From Escherichia phage AV112: 64,000 nucleotides of DNA. Positions 10,033 through 51,547 of the stretch are shown here, in pieces. The position numbers and the translations under genes are program-made. How positions within the stretch are numbered: the first letter of the stretch is position 1; each line of letters starts with the position of its first letter. The notes beneath the pieces were generated by a model that was given only the letters and a program-made list of their open reading frames with translations, searched no databases and was not told the origin of the DNA. The stretch lies in sequence record OR352942.1; one strand, 5' to 3'.

Positions 10033-10060
10033 ATTCTATCATCCGAAATCTAAAGCAAAA
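10033..10060 (-). promoter_or_regulatory. MotA-dependent middle promoter for gene 39
   Basis: Minus strand tttTGCTTTA (MotA box) - 12 nt - TAGAAT; the MotA box directly abuts the upstream terminator U-run. Confidence 0.55.
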
Positions 10061-10075
10061 AGGGCCGAAGCCCTT
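10055..10075 (-). terminator. UUCG-tetraloop terminator hairpin
   Basis: Minus strand AGGGC-ttcg-GCCCT followed by TTTTT. Confidence 0.55.
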
Positions 10076-29838: not shown

Positions 29839-30554
29839 TAGTCAAGAAATCCTTTAACATAATCAAAATCACGTTCAAACACATGGGCACTTACCATGGT
29901 ATGAGTATAATCACCAACTTCTACACCACATTCGTTAGCGATATAATGAAGTAATTTTCCTTGGAGATAAAAATCCAACTGCATAACAACAGCACAGTTC
30001 TGAGAACGCATATGACAGTGGGTATAAAGCTTACCATCACGAATATAATAAGTCACTGAGTCGGTACATGGATATTCAAGTGTTTCGTCTGAATCAAGCA
30101 AAGCCTGATCAGAACTTTCTAGAATTTGGAACACAACTCTTCGAGAGTTAGGTTTTTCTTTAAGTTCTTTTAGAAGAGTTGGTAACTGGGCCGCAATGCG
30201 AGGACCATAGAAAGTGTTGAAGTTCGCAGGCAAAGCATCTGATTTTGGTTTAGAAATAAATTTAGCGACGTTAGGATATGCCTTAAATGCTTCTTCTGCA
30301 TCAGTACCACCAGAAATCATAAATTTCCAGAAATCTTCAGCATATTCATAAGAGATGCGATTAATACGTGGGTCGGTCATTTTGAATGATGAAGGGGTAT
30401 CAACAACTACTGTCATAGACCCAATTTCATTACAACGTCCAATACGAGAATCAGTTACGAATTCCGGGTTTTCTAAAATTTCACGATTGACGGCTTTAAA
30501 TGCGGATTGAAAATCTGCGGCTTTAATATATTTCATTGTGTTATGTTTTCCCAT
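29838..30554 (-). CDS. 42: dCMP hydroxymethylase (thymidylate-synthase fold), 238 aa
   Basis: Motifs SRRVVFQI and CTDSVTYYIRDGKLYTHCHMRSQN parallel T4 gp42 SRRGIMIY and CTNTVQYLIRD...NMRSND as recalled. Confidence 0.75.
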   Translation of the reverse strand: MGKHNTMKYIKAADFQSAFKAVNREILENPEFVTDSRIGRCNEIGSMTVVVDTPSSFKMTDPRINRISYEYAEDFWKFMISGGTDAEEAFKAYPNVAKFISKPKSDALPANFNTFYGPRIAAQLPTLLKELKEKPNSRRVVFQILESSDQALLDSDETLEYPCTDSVTYYIRDGKLYTHCHMRSQNCAVVMQLDFYLQGKLLHYIANECGVEVGDYTHTMVSAHVFERDFDYVKGFLD

Positions 30555-34977: not shown

Positions 34978-37689
34978 TCAAAAATCGAACATATCGAACA
35001 GAGATGCTTTCTTCTCGTAATCGAGTTTCGCTGCTGATGTGAATCCTTCAAGTGGTTTAATAAATGTCTTCTCAAGGAGAACAGTGTAGTCCATCCAATG
35101 AAGTACGTCGTCTTTAATTAAATCTGTGATTTCAGTACCAGAAGGCCATGCGATACATTTATCACCGAATGGGTTTCCTTCACGTAAAGGCAGAACATAT
35201 ACTTTTTCACCTTCTACAACTTGTGGTGCATCGATATTACCTTTGATAGCACGGTTATACGTCAGAATTCCACGAATATGGAATGGGCATTTAGGACCAG
35301 GGAATCCACCTACATCATATTTAGCAATGTTATTCGCAGAAGATACTGACGCGATGCTAATATAATTCAATTGACGGAATTCTTTTTCAAACTCTTTAAA
35401 ATATTCTTGTAATGATTCTTCGCCTTCCTGAAGCATACGACGAATACATTCTTTAAGAGCTTTCTGTACTGCTTTAGGAGTCGAAGATTTCTGAGTCTCT
35501 AGACCCATGATTTTGAGTTTAGGCTCAGCGTATCTGGTTCCTTCCATATCCCACACGTTTAATGCATAACGTTTCTTACCAGTCCAGAATCCACCAATAC
35601 CTTTAGAACCGAGTGGAGGCCCAGCGATAGCTTCTCGGTCCATGAACATTAAGTGTTGTTTATTGTTCATGTATTCACACATTTCACGGAAACCTCTATC
35701 AATAGCTGGTTCCATACGTTCACGTGCAAACTTATCTAAGAAGTCTACCCAATGGTTGGTATCACGGAATTTAGATTCACCAACCTTATCGATAATTTTA
35801 TCAGCAGATACGTAAATAGAGTCTGTATCACCATAAAGAACGAAAGCTTCACCTTCTGTGCCACAAACTTCATTCAGATATTCATTAACTTTACGTTCAA
35901 TCCACTGTAAAGCCATTTGCCCGAATGTTGTGATTGCAGTAGCATTACGCAAATCGTAATAACGGAACCAAACGTTGCCAAGTGCACCATAAAGTGAGTT
36001 GATAAGCAATTTACGGTTAATTTGGGCAGTCATACCTGCAACTTCAGTACGTTGAGCTCTAAACAACATTTCATTAAGAGATTTAGCAGACAACTTTTTA
36101 ATCTTTTCTTTAATCTCATCACTGAAGTCGAAACGATAATCAACATCTAATGGTTCGTCAACAGAAAGATTAGGATTATGCAATGCCTCTTTAATTATTT
36201 CACCATTACGTTGAGCTGCAAGCATGTAACCTTTATGTTCTTTACGTTGATTAAAGACCTTAGTGATTTCAGTTGGAACAACACCGTCACGGTCTTTATA
36301 ATACATCATGCCGTTAGGAGAACAACTGTACACATCAGAAGGACGTTCAGCAACAGCGTTAATATAATCATGTAATGGAGCTACTTTAAACGTTCCTGCT
36401 ATTGTTTCTGGGCTAATATTCACTTGGCGAATAATACTTGGATACAGAGATGTAAGGTCGAAACTCATTACATATTTGTATCGATTTGGAATAGGTTCCT
36501 TAACAAAAGCGCCGGGATAAGGTTGAACCGGATGAGAACGACCTTGTGGAATCACCTTGTTCTGCTCTTTAAGGCTATTAAAAATAATAGCATCCCATGT
36601 TTTAATTGGGCTAAACACAGATTGAATCTGTATCTTAGCATAATAACCCATGTCCAAACTCAAGTTGATGAACTGACGTTTAGCATCAATTTGCAATACA
36701 CGATACACGTCGATAATGTTATAAGAAATATATCGTTGGTGATTGCTTTCACGAAGCTTAGAAATAGGGCCGTCATATTTCAGTTTACCAACGTTCAATT
36801 CAAATTCTGAAATGTAATCCAGAGAATACGACGGTTGATTGGTAAAAGAGAATTTTTTGTAAAGGTCAATGTAATCAAGAACAGAGATACCGAACAATGT
36901 AATGATTTCACGAGAACCATACATGTTTTCGATAACTTTAACACGAGTTTTACGATGTGGTGATAAACGTTTCGCAGTAGATTCGCCAAAAATATTCTTG
37001 ATTCGGTTATACACATATGGAATATCAAATGACTCAACGTTCCATCCAGTCAAAATGACAGGAGTTTTCTGTTGCCAGAAGTTGAGATATTCCATCAACA
37101 ATTCTTTTTCGTTATCGAACGGCATATAAATGATTTTATCGATAATTTCGGATGGGACTTCATCACCGCCTTGTTCTTGAAGCTTAGCCGCAATTTCGAT
37201 AGACCATTCTTCCACATTCCCGTATGGAGAATTCAAAAGGTCAAATACGTAGAACCTGTCGTCAATTGAGTCATAATGAGTGATAGCATCAATCGGATGT
37301 TTTGCTTGTGACGGCTCAGGGAACCCGTCTGGAGATGTTACTTCGATGTCGAAGTTAGCCACACGAATTTTTGTATGGTCGTATTTGATTTCATAGTTAT
37401 AAGTGTCAGACAAATACGCCAATTTGAAATCGTCCATGCCAAGTGCTTCAAGTCCGATATCTTCCATGCGTTTAATCCATTGGGAGGCATCACGCATATT
37501 GGCGAACAACTTACGAGTACACGGCTTACCGTAGATATCGAAATATTTCGTAGCCTGACTTTCCGGACAATGAGCAAACAGTGATGGTTTATATTCTACT
37601 TCACGAGTACGTTCACGGCCGTTAGAATCGATGTAACGTTCAAAAATTGAATCACCAATCTGTTCAACCGTTAAGTAAAATTCTTTCAT
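34978..37689 (-). CDS. 43: DNA polymerase (family B) with 3'-5' exonuclease, 903 aa
   Basis: Exo motif FDIEV, polymerase motifs SLYPS and YGDTDS; size of T4 gp43. Confidence 0.95.
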   Translation of the reverse strand: MKEFYLTVEQIGDSIFERYIDSNGRERTREVEYKPSLFAHCPESQATKYFDIYGKPCTRKLFANMRDASQWIKRMEDIGLEALGMDDFKLAYLSDTYNYEIKYDHTKIRVANFDIEVTSPDGFPEPSQAKHPIDAITHYDSIDDRFYVFDLLNSPYGNVEEWSIEIAAKLQEQGGDEVPSEIIDKIIYMPFDNEKELLMEYLNFWQQKTPVILTGWNVESFDIPYVYNRIKNIFGESTAKRLSPHRKTRVKVIENMYGSREIITLFGISVLDYIDLYKKFSFTNQPSYSLDYISEFELNVGKLKYDGPISKLRESNHQRYISYNIIDVYRVLQIDAKRQFINLSLDMGYYAKIQIQSVFSPIKTWDAIIFNSLKEQNKVIPQGRSHPVQPYPGAFVKEPIPNRYKYVMSFDLTSLYPSIIRQVNISPETIAGTFKVAPLHDYINAVAERPSDVYSCSPNGMMYYKDRDGVVPTEITKVFNQRKEHKGYMLAAQRNGEIIKEALHNPNLSVDEPLDVDYRFDFSDEIKEKIKKLSAKSLNEMLFRAQRTEVAGMTAQINRKLLINSLYGALGNVWFRYYDLRNATAITTFGQMALQWIERKVNEYLNEVCGTEGEAFVLYGDTDSIYVSADKIIDKVGESKFRDTNHWVDFLDKFARERMEPAIDRGFREMCEYMNNKQHLMFMDREAIAGPPLGSKGIGGFWTGKKRYALNVWDMEGTRYAEPKLKIMGLETQKSSTPKAVQKALKECIRRMLQEGEESLQEYFKEFEKEFRQLNYISIASVSSANNIAKYDVGGFPGPKCPFHIRGILTYNRAIKGNIDAPQVVEGEKVYVLPLREGNPFGDKCIAWPSGTEITDLIKDDVLHWMDYTVLLEKTFIKPLEGFTSAAKLDYEKKASLFDMFDF

Positions 37690-37720
37690 TTAATTTCCTT
37701 TAGACGAGTTATTGTCTTTT
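37690..37720 (-). promoter_or_regulatory. gene 43 translational operator hairpin plus Shine-Dalgarno
   Basis: Minus strand AGAC-AAUAACUC-GUCU followed by AAAGGAAAUUAAAUG; the 8-nt loop equals the wild-type T4 gp43 operator loop as I recall it from the SELEX literature. Confidence 0.55.
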
Positions 37721-37747
37721 GTTTGTTGATGAACTTATTATACTCCA

Positions 37748-37767
37748 AATGGGACCGAAGTCCCATT
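37748..37767 (-). terminator. UUCG-tetraloop hairpin immediately downstream of regA
   Basis: Minus strand ATGGGAC-ttcg-GTCCCAT; a TATAAT -10 (37737-37742) follows. Confidence 0.45.
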
Positions 37768-37770
37768 GCT

Positions 37771-38139
37771 TTAATTACCAATTGTATATTTTGCTTTCAA
37801 AGTCCAGTCATCTTTCTGTTTAAAAGAGATAACACGGAAGTTATTAGTCAGACCAAACAGATCTTCACGAGCAGAGTCTTCAATAACAATCAATCCCCAG
37901 TCTTCAAGCAACTGAGCAATCGAATCACGTCGCTGATAGTCTTCACCATCAATATCAACCTGACGTCCATCCATACGCAGCATTTCTTTAAAGTGGACGA
38001 TATAGTATTTACCTTGCTTTTGGAGGATATGACAAGACTGGTAAAGGACTTTATCCTTGTTATTAGCGATGCCCATACGGGTCAAAGTCTCTTTGACTTT
38101 CAGAAAATCTTCAGGGTTCTTCAATTTAATTTCAATCAT
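37771..38139 (-). CDS. regA: RegA translational repressor (122 aa)
   Basis: 122 aa, identical length to T4 RegA; syntenic between 62 and 43. Confidence 0.8.
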   Translation of the reverse strand: MIEIKLKNPEDFLKVKETLTRMGIANNKDKVLYQSCHILQKQGKYYIVHFKEMLRMDGRQVDIDGEDYQRRDSIAQLLEDWGLIVIEDSAREDLFGLTNNFRVISFKQKDDWTLKAKYTIGN

Positions 38140-38142
38140 TTT

Positions 38143-38706
38143 TTACCATTCCAATGCTATTTTTTTAAATTGTTTTTGTTCTTTCACATTTTTTGTAACT
38201 TCTTTGAGAAACTCATCAGTGACCATGGCCTTCAGTTCTTTAAGGACTATTGGCAACTTGTTATTTTTTTCAAGGAGCCGCTTATACTCAGTAGCATCAT
38301 TCATGTTTATTGTGTAATGTTTCATCAACAGTTTGATAACTAGTAACTCTGAAGTGTCTTCGACTAGTTTAGCCCATTTAGAGAATCGACGACCACGCGG
38401 AATTGCCGCCATCATATAGTTGAAGTGCGCTTCATCACTTAATTCAGAACCGACTAAGTTCATCATGTAAACAGCTGGCATACATTCTGGGAACTGGGAT
38501 AATGAGTTCTCAACCATAAATTTTGAGTAGTCGACCTGAGCAATTGACATAGATTTCTTTTCATTAATAGCATTAATGATTTTAAAGAATTCGTTCTCAG
38601 GTTTTTCTTTAAACATATCAGCACATTTTTGAATCGCATCAGCGTCATTAGACTTCCATGCAATTTGGTGCTCGTTAAGCCGGACGTCATCATCGAATAA
38701 GTTCAT
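38143..38706 (-). CDS. 62: clamp-loader small subunit (187 aa)
   Basis: Length identical to T4 gp62; follows gene 44 with a 2-nt gap. Confidence 0.75.
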
Positions 38707-38707
38707 A

Positions 38708-39670
38708 TTATTTCCAAGTCAGTTCGCATGTCAGTTGAAGAAGCATATACATAACATGTAATTCAATATTACTTGCTAATCCATGAAACTTATTGTTTTC
38801 GCCTGCAATTTCATAAAGCGAAATAATACTTTTACCAGGTGCAACTTGGTCATAACATTCTGAAACTAATTTATCGATGAACCATGAATAATCTGCGGCA
38901 TATTTTGGAGCTAATGCACGAAGCTGTTTGATATCTTTGTTCTTCATTGCTTCGATAACATCAGAGACTGTGCCACGGTCATTAGTTACGATAGACAAAA
39001 TACCCGCATCAAGAACACCTTTAGACGAGTACTGGTCTAATTGGCCAATTGTGCGACGAAAGTCCGGGAAGTTCTTTTTAACCAGAGCTGCAACAACTTT
39101 CATATCAGCGATTTCGATATTTTCGTTCTTACAAATTTCAACCATACGATGAATCATTTTCTTCATCATCGATATTTTATCTTCTTCGGTTGGACGTCCG
39201 AATTCGATAACTCGACAACGACTACGTAATGGTTCAATAATTCCATCGATGTTGTTAGCAGTAATAATAATAGAGCAGTTACTAGAGAATTCTTCCATAA
39301 ACGTACGAAGGTGACGTTGTGATTCGGCGAGGCCACTACGGTCAAATTCATCAATAACAATAACTTTCGGCTTGCCTTCCATTGAGACTGAACGAGCGAA
39401 TGCGGTTAACGGTCCCCGTACAAAATCAATCTTACAATCAGAACCGTTGACGAACATCATTTCGGCATTGATATCATTACATAATGCTTTTGCTACGGTT
39501 GTTTTACCTGTACCAGGAGAAGGAGAGTGCAAAATAATATGAGGAAGTTTTCCTTTAGATACTAAAGACTTGAATGTTTCATGGTCATACGCAGGCAGAA
39601 TACATTCGTCAATGGAAGAAGGACGATATTTCTGTTCTAGAATGTGTTCTTTGGAATTGATAGTAATCAT
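38708..39670 (-). CDS. 44: clamp-loader ATPase (AAA+), 320 aa
   Basis: Walker [11 protein letters not shown], Walker [12 protein letters not shown]-like motif RSRC. Confidence 0.9.
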
Positions 39671-44942: not shown

Positions 44943-44966
44943 ATTATTTCCTCATTAGTTAATTCA

Positions 44967-44993
44967 TTCTATCATCCGCTTATAAAGCAAAAA
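44967..44993 (-). promoter_or_regulatory. MotA-dependent middle promoter for gene 47
   Basis: Minus strand tttTGCTTTA - 11 nt - TAGAAT, immediately after the terminator U-run; same architecture as the gene 39 promoter. Confidence 0.55.
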
Positions 44994-45014
44994 AAGGAAC
45001 TCCGAAGAGTTCCT
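44985..45014 (-). terminator. rho-independent UUCG-tetraloop terminator
   Basis: Minus strand AGGAACTC-ttcg-GAGTTCCT followed by TTTTTTG. Confidence 0.65.
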
Positions 45015-49262: not shown

Positions 49263-49733
49263 TTAATCATGTTTCCACACCCCGTCGGTATTTGTCCAAA
49301 GTCGCTGATTATCTGATCCTCGCCACAGTTTTTTGGTCGGAAGATTTTTCTCATACTTCCCATCAATAATAACATCAACATATTTAAGCATTTCTAGTTG
49401 TTTAATATCTTCAAACTTATATCCTGTCCACAACCAAATGCTTTTATTGGGATAAAGTTTTTTTACTGTTTGAACAATGCAATGAACAACATCTTGGTTA
49501 TCAGGATAGAGAGGGTCTCCTCCAGTTATAGTTAATCCTTCTATATAATCATTATTCAAACATTCAATTAATTGTTCCAGCGTTTCACCGGTGAATGGGA
49601 TACCATTTCTAGCGTTCCATGTTGATTTATTATAACACCCCTCGCATTTATGCAAACAACCTGTAACGAAAAGAACGACCCTGCAACCGGGGCCATTCAC
49701 AAAATCGCAAGGATAAAATCTATCATAATTCAT
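49263..49733 (-). CDS. nrdG: anaerobic ribonucleotide reductase activating protein (radical SAM), 156 aa
   Basis: Cys cluster CLHKCEGC; 156 aa; directly downstream of nrdD. Confidence 0.85.
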   Translation of the reverse strand: MNYDRFYPCDFVNGPGCRVVLFVTGCLHKCEGCYNKSTWNARNGIPFTGETLEQLIECLNNDYIEGLTITGGDPLYPDNQDVVHCIVQTVKKLYPNKSIWLWTGYKFEDIKQLEMLKYVDVIIDGKYEKNLPTKKLWRGSDNQRLWTNTDGVWKHD

Positions 49734-51547
49734 TGGTGTTTAACCCTATGCATGATTTCTTTATTTTTGCCGAGATTAAATCCGCGTTCGTTCGGATTTC
49801 CAAGATAACCGCATGTTCTTCTTATTGTGTTCATCTTTTTAGGATCAGTTTCTCCGCAAACTGAACAAACAAATCCGGTTTCAGTAGGAGTCATTTCATG
49901 AGTACTTCCACATGTAAAACATTTATCTACTGGCATATTAACACCAAAATAATCTAAATGTTGTGCAGCATAATCCCATACAGCCTCAAGACCTTTTAGG
50001 TTATTTTTCATATCAGGAAGTTCAACATAAGAAATGTGACCACCAGTCGCAATGAAATGATATGGCGCTTCACGAGAAATCTTTTCAAACGGAGTAATAT
50101 TTTCTTCTACTGAAACATGGAAACTATTAGTGTACCAGCCTTTATCAGTAACATCTTTTACACTTCCATATTTTTCTGTATCAAGTTTACAGAAGCGATA
50201 ACAAAGGTTTTCAGCAGGAGTAGAATACAAGCTAAAAGCAAAACCGGTTCTTTCAGTCCACTGCTTAAGACGAGCATTCATTTTAGTTAAAATTTCTTGC
50301 CCAATATCACGTCCGGCAAGAATATTCAATTCGTGAATACCAATGTATCCTAAAGACACTGAACTTCTACCGTTTTTAAATAACTCAATTATATCGTCAT
50401 CAGGTTTAAGACGAACCCCGAATGCACCTTCTTGGTAAAGAATAGGAGCAACAGTAGCTTTAACTCCTTTTAAGGAACTAATTCTACACATCAAAGCTTC
50501 AAAACACAAATCCATTCGCTCATTGAACAATTCGATAAATTTCTGTTCATTGAACTGTGTTCCAATATAAGAATCTAACGCAATGCGAGGAAGATTCAGT
50601 GTTACAACACCGAGATTATTACGTCCATCAAGAATTTCATTACCAGTCGAATCTTTCCATACGCTCAAGAAACTACGGCAACCCATTGGAGAAACAGGAA
50701 TAGACGAACCAGTGATAGCTTTATTGTTCTTAACTGAAATAATATCAGGATACATTCTTTTGCTTGCGCATTCTAAAGCAAGCTGTTTAATATCATAGTT
50801 CGGGTCGTCTTTATAAAGATTAACACCCTCTTCAACGAACATAACAAGTTTAGGGAAAATAGGAGTTATTCCATCACGACCAAGGCCTTTAATACGATTT
50901 TTCAGAATTGCTTTCTGAATCATTCGTTCAGTCCAGTCAGTTCCAGTACCAAATGTAATTGTTACAAAAGGCGTTTGTCCGTTTGAACTAAAGAGAGTAT
51001 TTACTTCGTATTCATACGCTTGGAATGCATCATATACGTCTTTTTCTGTTTTAGATTGAGCATAATTCAACGCATCAGCGATTTGCCATTTTTCTGCATC
51101 TTCAATATGTTTTGCATAGGTGCGTTTAACATAAGGAGAAAGAACTTTATCGACATTCGCAAATGTAGTTCCACCATACTGATGCGAAGCAACCTGTGCG
51201 GTAATTTGTGCCATAATTGCAGTAGCAACACCAATCGATTTAGGCGTTTCAATTTGAGCATTGCCTAATTTAAATCCATTCTCAAGCATTCCTTTTAAAT
51301 CTACTAAACAGCAATTAGTAAAAGGCAATGATATACTGTAATCTAAATCATGAAAATGAATTAATCCAACATTATGTGCATTTACAATATGACTTGGAAG
51401 AATACGACAAGCGATATGTTTAGAAACAATACCGGCCATTAAATCTCTTTTTGTTGGAAAGACACGAGAATCTTTGTTGGCGTTTTCGGTATTTAATTCT
51501 TTATCTTTATTTGAAATAAAATTTAAAACATCTTTCTCTAAAGACAT
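49730..51547 (-). CDS. nrdD: anaerobic ribonucleoside-triphosphate reductase (class III), 605 aa
   Basis: C-terminal Cys-rich zinc ribbon CFTCGS...CSVCG and glycyl-radical-type tail RTCGYLG; 605 aa as in T4. Confidence 0.9.
   Translation of the reverse strand: MSLEKDVLNFISNKDKELNTENANKDSRVFPTKRDLMAGIVSKHIACRILPSHIVNAHNVGLIHFHDLDYSISLPFTNCCLVDLKGMLENGFKLGNAQIETPKSIGVATAIMAQITAQVASHQYGGTTFANVDKVLSPYVKRTYAKHIEDAEKWQIADALNYAQSKTEKDVYDAFQAYEYEVNTLFSSNGQTPFVTITFGTGTDWTERMIQKAILKNRIKGLGRDGITPIFPKLVMFVEEGVNLYKDDPNYDIKQLALECASKRMYPDIISVKNNKAITGSSIPVSPMGCRSFLSVWKDSTGNEILDGRNNLGVVTLNLPRIALDSYIGTQFNEQKFIELFNERMDLCFEALMCRISSLKGVKATVAPILYQEGAFGVRLKPDDDIIELFKNGRSSVSLGYIGIHELNILAGRDIGQEILTKMNARLKQWTERTGFAFSLYSTPAENLCYRFCKLDTEKYGSVKDVTDKGWYTNSFHVSVEENITPFEKISREAPYHFIATGGHISYVELPDMKNNLKGLEAVWDYAAQHLDYFGVNMPVDKCFTCGSTHEMTPTETGFVCSVCGETDPKKMNTIRRTCGYLGNPNERGFNLGKNKEIMHRVKHQ

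Follow-up and report, generated by a model that had tools for sequence, protein, structure and literature searches.

The spacer between regA and gene 43 of Escherichia phage AV112 reads as a three-part control region on the minus strand, consisting of a UUCG hairpin, a middle promoter of the P43 type and a leader that carries the gp43 operator. We put the probability of this reading at about 0.88. The three signals (transcript-end hairpin, middle promoter and operator) are textbook features of T4-type phages, already known and without novelty. The evidence for them differs in kind: the operator is backed by experiments on the identical RB69 sequence, the promoter by homology to T4, and the terminator or stabilizer by structure, position and conservation.

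The window analyzed here is a stretch of 64,000 nucleotides (record OR352942.1), and the features described below are on its minus strand unless the plus strand is named. The list of open reading frames gave gene 44 (38708–39670), gene 62 (38143–38706) and the ORF of the translational repressor regA (37771–38139), the last also supported by the RB69 annotation of the homologous locus. Gene 43 (34978–37689, with its AUG at 37687–37689) encodes the 903-residue DNA polymerase gp43 and is repressor and regulated gene in one; the cognate family-B polymerase is thus encoded immediately 3′ of the operator. All control features lie within the regA–43 spacer, which measures 81 nt from the regA stop to the AUG (37690–37770); the 78 bp given for it by an earlier, sequence-only reading is the length of the T4 spacer. 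As RNA, the region reads UAA-AGC-(AAUGGGAC-UUCG-GUCCCAUU)-U-GGAG-UAUAAU-AAGUUCAUCAACAAACAAA-(AGAC-AAUAACUC-GUCU)-AAAGGAAAUUAA-AUG.

A megablast search with about 800 nt of this region matched 158 phage records. Escherichia phage AV113 was 100% identical over the 801 nt searched, and RB69 was 98.3% identical over 800 nt. The identity with RB69 was 100% in the 160 nt 5′ of gene 43 and in residues 1–596 of gp43, and the 903-residue protein matched the RB69 polymerase structures 1CLQ and 1IG9 over its full length. Judged by these matches, the window belongs to the RB69 group (Mosigvirus), and the translational operator in its regA–43 spacer is that of RB69 gene 43, characterized by the Karam laboratory. 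Because of the identity in the 160 nt and in gp43, the results obtained on the RB69 gene 43 leader should apply here unchanged.

In the mechanism that we propose, the C(UUCG)G hairpin would mark the end of the 45-44-62-regA transcripts, terminating them inefficiently and mainly protecting their 3′ ends from exonucleases. The P43 homologue, with its TATAAT at 37737–37742, would then restart transcription near position 37730 (by homology to the mapped T4 start), presumably from a non-consensus MotA box, TGGGACTTCG, inside the hairpin DNA. The leader made in this way, about 41 nt long, would carry the operator, composed of the hairpin AGAC-AAUAACUC-GUCU and of the single-stranded AAAGGAAAUUAA with the Shine–Dalgarno sequence. 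Free gp43, not engaged on DNA, would bind the leader hairpin and the Shine–Dalgarno region and block ribosome loading, so that the enzyme would limit its own synthesis according to how much of it is free.

The UUCG hairpin and the proposed middle promoter

The C(UUCG)G hairpin, AAUGGGAC-UUCG-GUCCCAUU (37748–37767), lies 3 nt downstream of the UAA that ends regA (37771–37773) and is followed by UGGAG. Its 8-bp stem contains four G–C pairs and has a predicted stability of −11.7 kcal/mol; the UUCG loop is closed by a C–G pair (GGGAC-UUCG-GUCCC), as is typical of the extra-stable tetraloops. The element AUGGGAC-UUCG-GUCCCAU that had been noted before was indeed present, but longer by one A–U pair, which brings the stem to 8 bp. 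Across 17 versions of the UUCG-type hairpin, 94.9% of the pairs were preserved and double-sided changes occurred at eight of the eight pairs, indicating that the hairpin has been selected as an RNA structure of the sense strand. On the opposite strand, the G·U pairs found in relatives would read as C·A mismatches. In the relatives, too, the hairpin is rich in G+C and comes soon after the stop codon of the gene before it. Their tetraloop was mostly UUCG, with UACG, UCCG, UUAC and GAAA also represented, and a U-rich tail followed on the 3′ side.

With its G+C-rich stem-loop closing a transcription unit, the hairpin shows one of the two features expected of an intrinsic (rho-independent) terminator. 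The tail after the AV112 hairpin, AUUUGGAG, contains three U in 8 nt, short of the five or more in eight usual for such terminators; the corresponding count was five in T4 and four to six in the other relatives. A scan for the terminator consensus did not call the UUCG hairpin on the sense (minus) strand. The same hairpin was called in the antisense direction, a result that we ascribe to the A-tract preceding it and not to antisense transcription. Owing to its short, weak U run, the hairpin is probably an inefficient terminator that mainly serves in exonuclease protection. The transcript-end stabilization proposed by the sequence-only reading is plausible as far as the conserved structure goes, but the weak U-tract and the missing sense-strand call count against a terminating function, and we take the hairpin for no more than a leaky terminator or a 3′-end stabilizer of the 45-44-62-regA transcripts.

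Hairpins of this kind abound in the window. CTTCGG occurred 32 times against 16 expected, a number reached in none of 100 shuffles. Nine strong C(UUCG)G hairpins were found, all on the transcribed strand and eight of them intergenic, and four started 3–7 nt after a stop codon. For T4 and RB69, transcript mapping of the region is said to have been carried out by Hsu and Karam in 1990 and by Yeh, Hsu and Karam (Yeh et al.) in 1998.

The −10 hexamer TATAAT (37737–37742) is preceded directly by GGAG (GGAG-TATAAT, 37737–37746). GGAGTATAAT is conserved across genera, and so is the hexamer itself, a canonical σ70 −10 element homologous to that of T4 P43. When the minus strand was scanned at this site for σ70 promoters with two hexamers, neither a promoter nor a −35 element was returned. 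The start of the T4 middle promoter P43 is listed at position 29933 (Hinton review, PMC2988021, Table 1), which in the T4 genome sequence falls 5 nt after the homologous TATAAT. We validated the T4 coordinates on P45 and P42, whose listed starts lie exactly 7 nt after the −10 element, with consensus MotA boxes upstream. Transferred to AV112, the position of the −10 element and the T4 P43 start predict initiation at the A in position 37730 (±2 nt) and a leader of about 41 nt, vs 40 nt in T4. The TATAAT would then belong to a middle promoter that depends on MotA and AsiA and is the homologue of T4 P43. A promoter at this hexamer had been claimed from the sequence alone, and homology supports the claim; the MotA-dependent middle type, without a −35 element, had gone unrecognized.

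The consensus of the MotA box is (a/t)(a/t)(a/t)TGCTTtA, and a spacer of 12 ± 1 bp separates the box from the downstream −10 sequence TAtaaT (PMC2988021). By its geometry relative to T4 P43, the candidate box in AV112 is TGGGACTTCG (37756–37765), made up of the loop of the hairpin and its flanks. It is a poor match, agreeing with the consensus at five of 10 positions, 13 bp from the −10 element, and having the core ACTT instead of GCTT, a variant known from T4 P46 (PMC2988021). Relative to the predicted start, the ACTT of AV112 occupies positions −31 to −28; in T4, the sole upstream GCTT is the one in the tetraloop, at −31 to −28 of the listed P43 start. In relatives whose hairpin lies 18–21 nt from the −10 element, a separate MotA-like box (TTTTACTTTA or TTCTGCTATC) is found in between, at the canonical 11–13 bp, and the filling of the gap by such boxes supports the assignment to the middle class. 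Some other relatives have a GAAA loop and no CTT and retain the TATAAT, for which reason we can only infer a MotA box in the loop. In the window as a whole, the pattern TGCTTYA-N11-13-TANNNT occurred 15 times against 1.6 expected, an excess of about 9-fold.

Two other C(UUCG)G hairpins on the minus strand (10033–10075 and 44966–45014) are directly followed by a consensus MotA box, TTTGCTTTA, with TAGAAT 11–12 nt after the box. At both of these junctions between a terminator hairpin and a middle promoter, the U-tract also supplies the A/T portion of the MotA sequence.

The plus strand, too, bears a MotA-like pattern near the hairpin. The AAGCAA located 5′ of the hairpin reads TTGCTTTA on that strand (37766–37792), a perfect MotA-box core, with TATATT 11 nt further on; the whole amounts to TGCTTTA-N-TATATT at 37767–37792. 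An antisense promoter is nonetheless unlikely, because the −10-like part consists of regA codons that are themselves conserved, and it is lacking in relatives with a different ORF before the hairpin. AAGCAA itself is conserved in all lineages in which the hairpin abuts the −10 element, and it is missing from those with a separate MotA-like box on the sense strand.

One extension of our reading, possible albeit on the doubtful side, is that the terminator hairpin and P43 are fused. The DNA of the tetraloop (A/G-CTT-C-G) would be the MotA box, with CTT at −30 to −28, and the GGAG a target of RegB in read-through transcripts. If so, some 35 bp would end, process and restart transcription, and read-through from upstream could interfere with MotA binding at P43. 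In the reviews consulted, we found no description of such an overlap between a hairpin and a MotA box.

The GGAG just before the −10 element (37743–37746) is a putative RegB site, present in most relatives. The segment GGAGUAUAAUA agrees at nine of 11 positions with the RegB consensus GGAGRAYARAA, given as GG*AGRAYARAA for strong sites (PMC3014915), and in the centroid structure its GGAG stays single-stranded. GGAG-UAUAAUA might hence be mainly an RNA signal and not a promoter, namely, a putative site for the RegB endoribonuclease on read-through transcripts, where a cut would leave the upstream mRNA ending past the protective UUCG hairpin and would free a separate gene 43 message. Such a role could explain why GGAG stands before TATAAT in most genera, though a −10 hexamer does not need it. 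We nevertheless regard this explanation as unlikely. It leaves aside the T4 middle-promoter start listed 5 nt after the TATAAT (PMC2988021), and relatives alter GGAG to GTAG, AGAG, GGGG or TGGG while retaining TATAAT; moreover, most middle transcripts are RegB-resistant (PMC3014915). The two roles, RegB site and promoter, are in any case not mutually exclusive.

A considerably more improbable proposal is that the UUCG hairpin matters as DNA only, by carrying the MotA box for gene 43 transcription, and has no role as an RNA structure. The exact placement of the T4 loop GCTT at −31 to −28 of P43 would suit this proposal, as would the ACTT at the same place in AV112 with its canonical 13-bp spacer. 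It is, however, difficult to reconcile with compensatory changes at all eight stem pairs, including G·U pairs whose counterparts in the opposite strand are C·A mismatches, or with the retention of the hairpin with other stable tetraloops (UACG, GAAA and UCCG). Furthermore, the hairpin is kept at 18–21 nt from the −10 element even where a separate MotA-like box, TTTTACTTTA/TTCTGCTATC, lies between the two.

The gp43 operator hairpin

The operator hairpin of our three-part reading, AGAC-AAUAACUC-GUCU (37702–37717), is identified by its sequence, by folding, by identity with RB69 and by covariation. Its 8-nt loop, AAUAACUC (37706–37713), has the core UAAC. Two nucleotides (AA) separate the hairpin from the AGGA that forms the Shine–Dalgarno sequence of gene 43 (37696–37699), which is contained in the single-stranded 3′ part of the operator, AAAGGAAAUUAA (37690–37701); from the end of the loop to the AUG there are 16 nt, so that the hairpin is situated at the ribosome-binding site. 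The short stem with an 8-nt loop that the sequence-only reading had reported just 5′ of this Shine–Dalgarno sequence is therefore where it was said to be. That reading had also equated the loop with that of the T4 operator, a claim that would fall if the T4 loop were different; a check against the T4 genome (AF158101, hairpin AGCCU-AAUAACUC-GGGCU) and the reviews found the two loops identical.

The stem comprises only 4 bp (−2.2 kcal/mol). The folding that had been suggested as a check placed the hairpin in both the minimum free energy and the centroid structures of the region, with a pairing probability of 0.87 in the predicted leader. According to the review by Uzan and Miller, the gp43 operator consists of a hairpin and a sequence overlapping the ribosome-binding site; the hairpin measures 18 nt in T4 and 16 nt in RB69, the loop is common to both, and RB69 operator RNA crosslinks to gp43 (PMC3014915). 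The T4 loop of 8 nt was the one randomized in the first SELEX experiment (Gold's account, PMC4661202). Binding of gp43 and self-repression have been reported for RB69 (PMC3014915), which is identical in sequence here. Going by that identity, gp43 of AV112 should bind its leader RNA and repress its own translation, as has been established experimentally for the RB69 sequence; experiments have demonstrated such self-limitation for T4 as well.

The 8-mer AATAACTC occurred five times in the window against 4.1 expected, i.e., at chance frequency. With a stem of only 4 bp in addition, the operator sequence taken alone is statistically unremarkable, and the frequency of the 8-mer was our reason for gathering the upstream regions of relatives. 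The loop recurs in one more hairpin, GAUGG-AAUAACUC-CUAUU, at 50858–50875 inside an ORF of 605 residues (49730–51547). That hairpin is probably due to chance, since the 8-mer occurs as often as expected.

An Rfam scan of positions 37400–38100 at a permissive E-value returned chance hits only and no curated family for the operator. A full-text literature search for AAUAACUC and AGCAACCU, the latter a variant loop described below, returned unrelated papers on siRNA and miRNA alone.

The operator in related phages

We compared the regions upstream of gene 43 in 15 named phages of different genera and in 62 IMG/VR contigs. Most Tevenvirinae lineages have a hairpin with the loop AAU[A/C/U]ACU[C/U/G] before the Shine–Dalgarno sequence. 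The stem varies by lineage, with either 4 bp (AGAC/GUCU, AGUC/GACU and AGGC/GUCU) or 5 bp (AGCCU/GGGCU, AGACU/GGUCU, AGACC/GGUCU, AGUCC/GGACU, GGUCU/GGACC and AUUCU/GGAAU), while the loop stays almost the same from genus to genus. Over 19 distinct versions of the helix from many genera, pairing was preserved to 91.6% and double-sided changes affected four of the five pairs. The observed covariation was not reached in any of 500 shuffles, and registers slid along the sequence paired to 45% at most. The U·G and G·U pairs seen in the operator stems of relatives are possible on the sense strand only. As judged from this pattern of substitution, the operator stem is a real, selected RNA helix.

It is the position at the gene 43 Shine–Dalgarno sequence, the 100% identity with RB69 and the covariation in relatives that lift the operator beyond chance. 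It is scarcely credible that the AAUAACUC hairpin is fortuitous or vestigial and gp43 of AV112 not self-regulating: the chance frequency of the 8-mer, the 4-bp stem and the existence of T4-related phages that reportedly do not autoregulate (PMC3014915), together with the lack of the hairpin in Krischvirus, Roskildevirus and others, are outweighed by the strong covariation, by a loop that hardly changes between genera and by identity to an RB69 sequence with reported repression and RNA binding (PMC3014915).

Among the loci compared, the operator hairpin was missing in Krischvirus (RB49-like), in Roskildevirus and in more distant lineages. This agrees with the remark in the review that some T4-related phages differ or reportedly do not autoregulate (PMC3014915). 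Erwinia phage Cronus (locus L009, 1390–1522) is without the AAUNACUC hairpin and has, before the Shine–Dalgarno sequence, a duplicated AAGGUACAUUAAUUUGUACCUU hairpin and a stem with a 4-nt loop, AGCC-ACAC-GGCU. Escherichia virus KFS-EC, a Krischvirus (locus L012, 1277–1358), is likewise without the AAUNACUC hairpin, and a full σ70-type promoter, TTGACA-N17-TATAAT, takes the place of the operator hairpin.

In several genera, a small hypothetical ORF of 53–75 residues is inserted between regA and the hairpin, and the module of hairpin, promoter and operator downstream of it is unchanged. Such an ORF was found in Gaprivervirus, some Tequatrovirus, Mosugukvirus, Karamvirus, Bragavirus, Kanagawavirus and Jiaodavirus (loci L004, 992–1198; L006, 964–1185; L007, 977–1195; L010, 1381–1542; L011, 1277–1504; L013, 984–1202; and L015, 1275–1475). 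It is absent from the AV112 window and from RB69.

Two Serratia phages carry a different loop at the homologous place before gene 43. The hairpin is GUCC-AGCAACCU-GGAC in phage PS2 (NC_024121; locus L044, 660–690) and GUCC-G-AGCAACCU-GGAC, with an extra loop G, in phage Muldoon (NC_049464; locus L045, 660–690); in both, it is followed by GUUAAACUAA...GAGGAAA-AUG. Megablast with the Muldoon and PS2 regions as queries added Cronobacter phage VP8 and Serratia phage SP1 as probable carriers of such a hairpin. AGCAACCU differs from the wild-type loop at four positions and has the core CAAC; we take it to be the "major variant" loop that was selected beside the wild type in the 1990 SELEX experiment of Tuerk and Gold. 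Uzan and Miller, writing in 2010, hoped that the "-CAAC-" variant might be found naturally in some phage (PMC3014915), and the identity that we presume for AGCAACCU fits the variant that they had in mind. The change from A2-U7 to G2-C7 suggests a base pair, or covariation, inside the loop. When IMG/VR was searched for exact copies of the AGCAACCU hairpin pattern, 50 matches were obtained, of which only two were in T4-like contigs (PS2 and Muldoon); the search revealed no further T4-like carriers, and the other matches fell in unrelated contigs of up to about 40 kb.

For a motif that is not in Rfam, the comparison thus shows, with the support of covariation, the natural variation of the loop (AAU[A/C/U]ACUC), the classes of 4- and 5-bp stems and the lineages that have lost it.

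Comparison with known systems

The discovery value of the AV112 operator is small, given that the gp43 operator is the classic RNA of the invention of SELEX and that the RB69 version has been studied biochemically. It may rather be of use as a positive control, a small and weakly folding regulatory RNA recognized from sequence alone.

From the RB69 operator we could detect no difference. At least 160 nt are identical, the 16-nt hairpin AGAC-AAUAACUC-GUCU is located at the Shine–Dalgarno sequence in both, and the cognate gp43 is the same, AV112 being another isolate of the same phage group. The RB69 operator is reportedly the subject of work by Wang, Pavlov and Karam (1997) and by Petrov and Karam (2002), both cited in PMC3014915.

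The comparison with the T4 regA–43 region that the sequence-only reading had called for showed the same order of the three elements and the same loop, AAUAACUC. The T4 sequence (AF158101) reads UAA-GC-(AAGGGGC-UUCG-GCCCCUU)-AUUUGGAG-UAUAAU-AUAUCAAG-(AGCCU-AAUAACUC-GGGCU)-AUAAACUAAGGAAUAUCU-AUG. T4 and AV112 share the upstream UUCG hairpin and GGAGTATAAT, as well as an operator hairpin with an identical 8-nt loop, placed 5′ of the Shine–Dalgarno sequence in a leader of about 40 nt. They differ in the operator stem, which has 5 bp in T4 (AGCCU/GGGCU, closed by U·G) and 4 bp in AV112, and in the distance from the end of the loop to the AUG (23 nt vs 16 nt), the AV112 hairpin being 7 nt nearer the AUG. 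Conversely, 8 nt separate the −10 element from the operator hairpin in T4 and 19 nt in AV112, whose leader is correspondingly longer 5′ of the hairpin. Work on the T4 operator is said to include that of Andrake et al. in 1988 and of Tuerk and Gold in 1990. Wang et al. (1997) reportedly found that T4 gp43 acts specifically on the T4 operator and that RB69 gp43 represses both.

The T4 promoter P43 resembles the AV112 element in its homologous TATAAT, in the GGAG and tetraloop hairpin that precede it, in having no −35 element and in the CTT at −30 to −28. The core of the box is GCTT in T4 and ACTT in AV112, and the spacer from the box to the −10 element is 15 bp and 13 bp, respectively; the start has been mapped for T4 P43, whereas that of AV112 is a prediction.

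In T4, C(UUCG)G hairpins between cistrons were reported by Tuerk et al. in 1988 (described in PMC4371310). Like these, the AV112 hairpin is intergenic, follows closely on a stop codon in the transcribed strand and has a UUCG loop closed by C–G. There is no difference of note, save that the DNA of the AV112 hairpin overlaps the expected position of the MotA box.

Finally, the operator of T4 gene 32 is similar in that a replication protein, when free of DNA, turns down translation of the mRNA that encodes it (PMC3014915, PMC535899). The two operators are built differently: that of gene 32 consists of a pseudoknot and an unstructured A/U-rich tract to which the protein binds cooperatively, whereas that of gene 43 is a single small hairpin together with the Shine–Dalgarno region.
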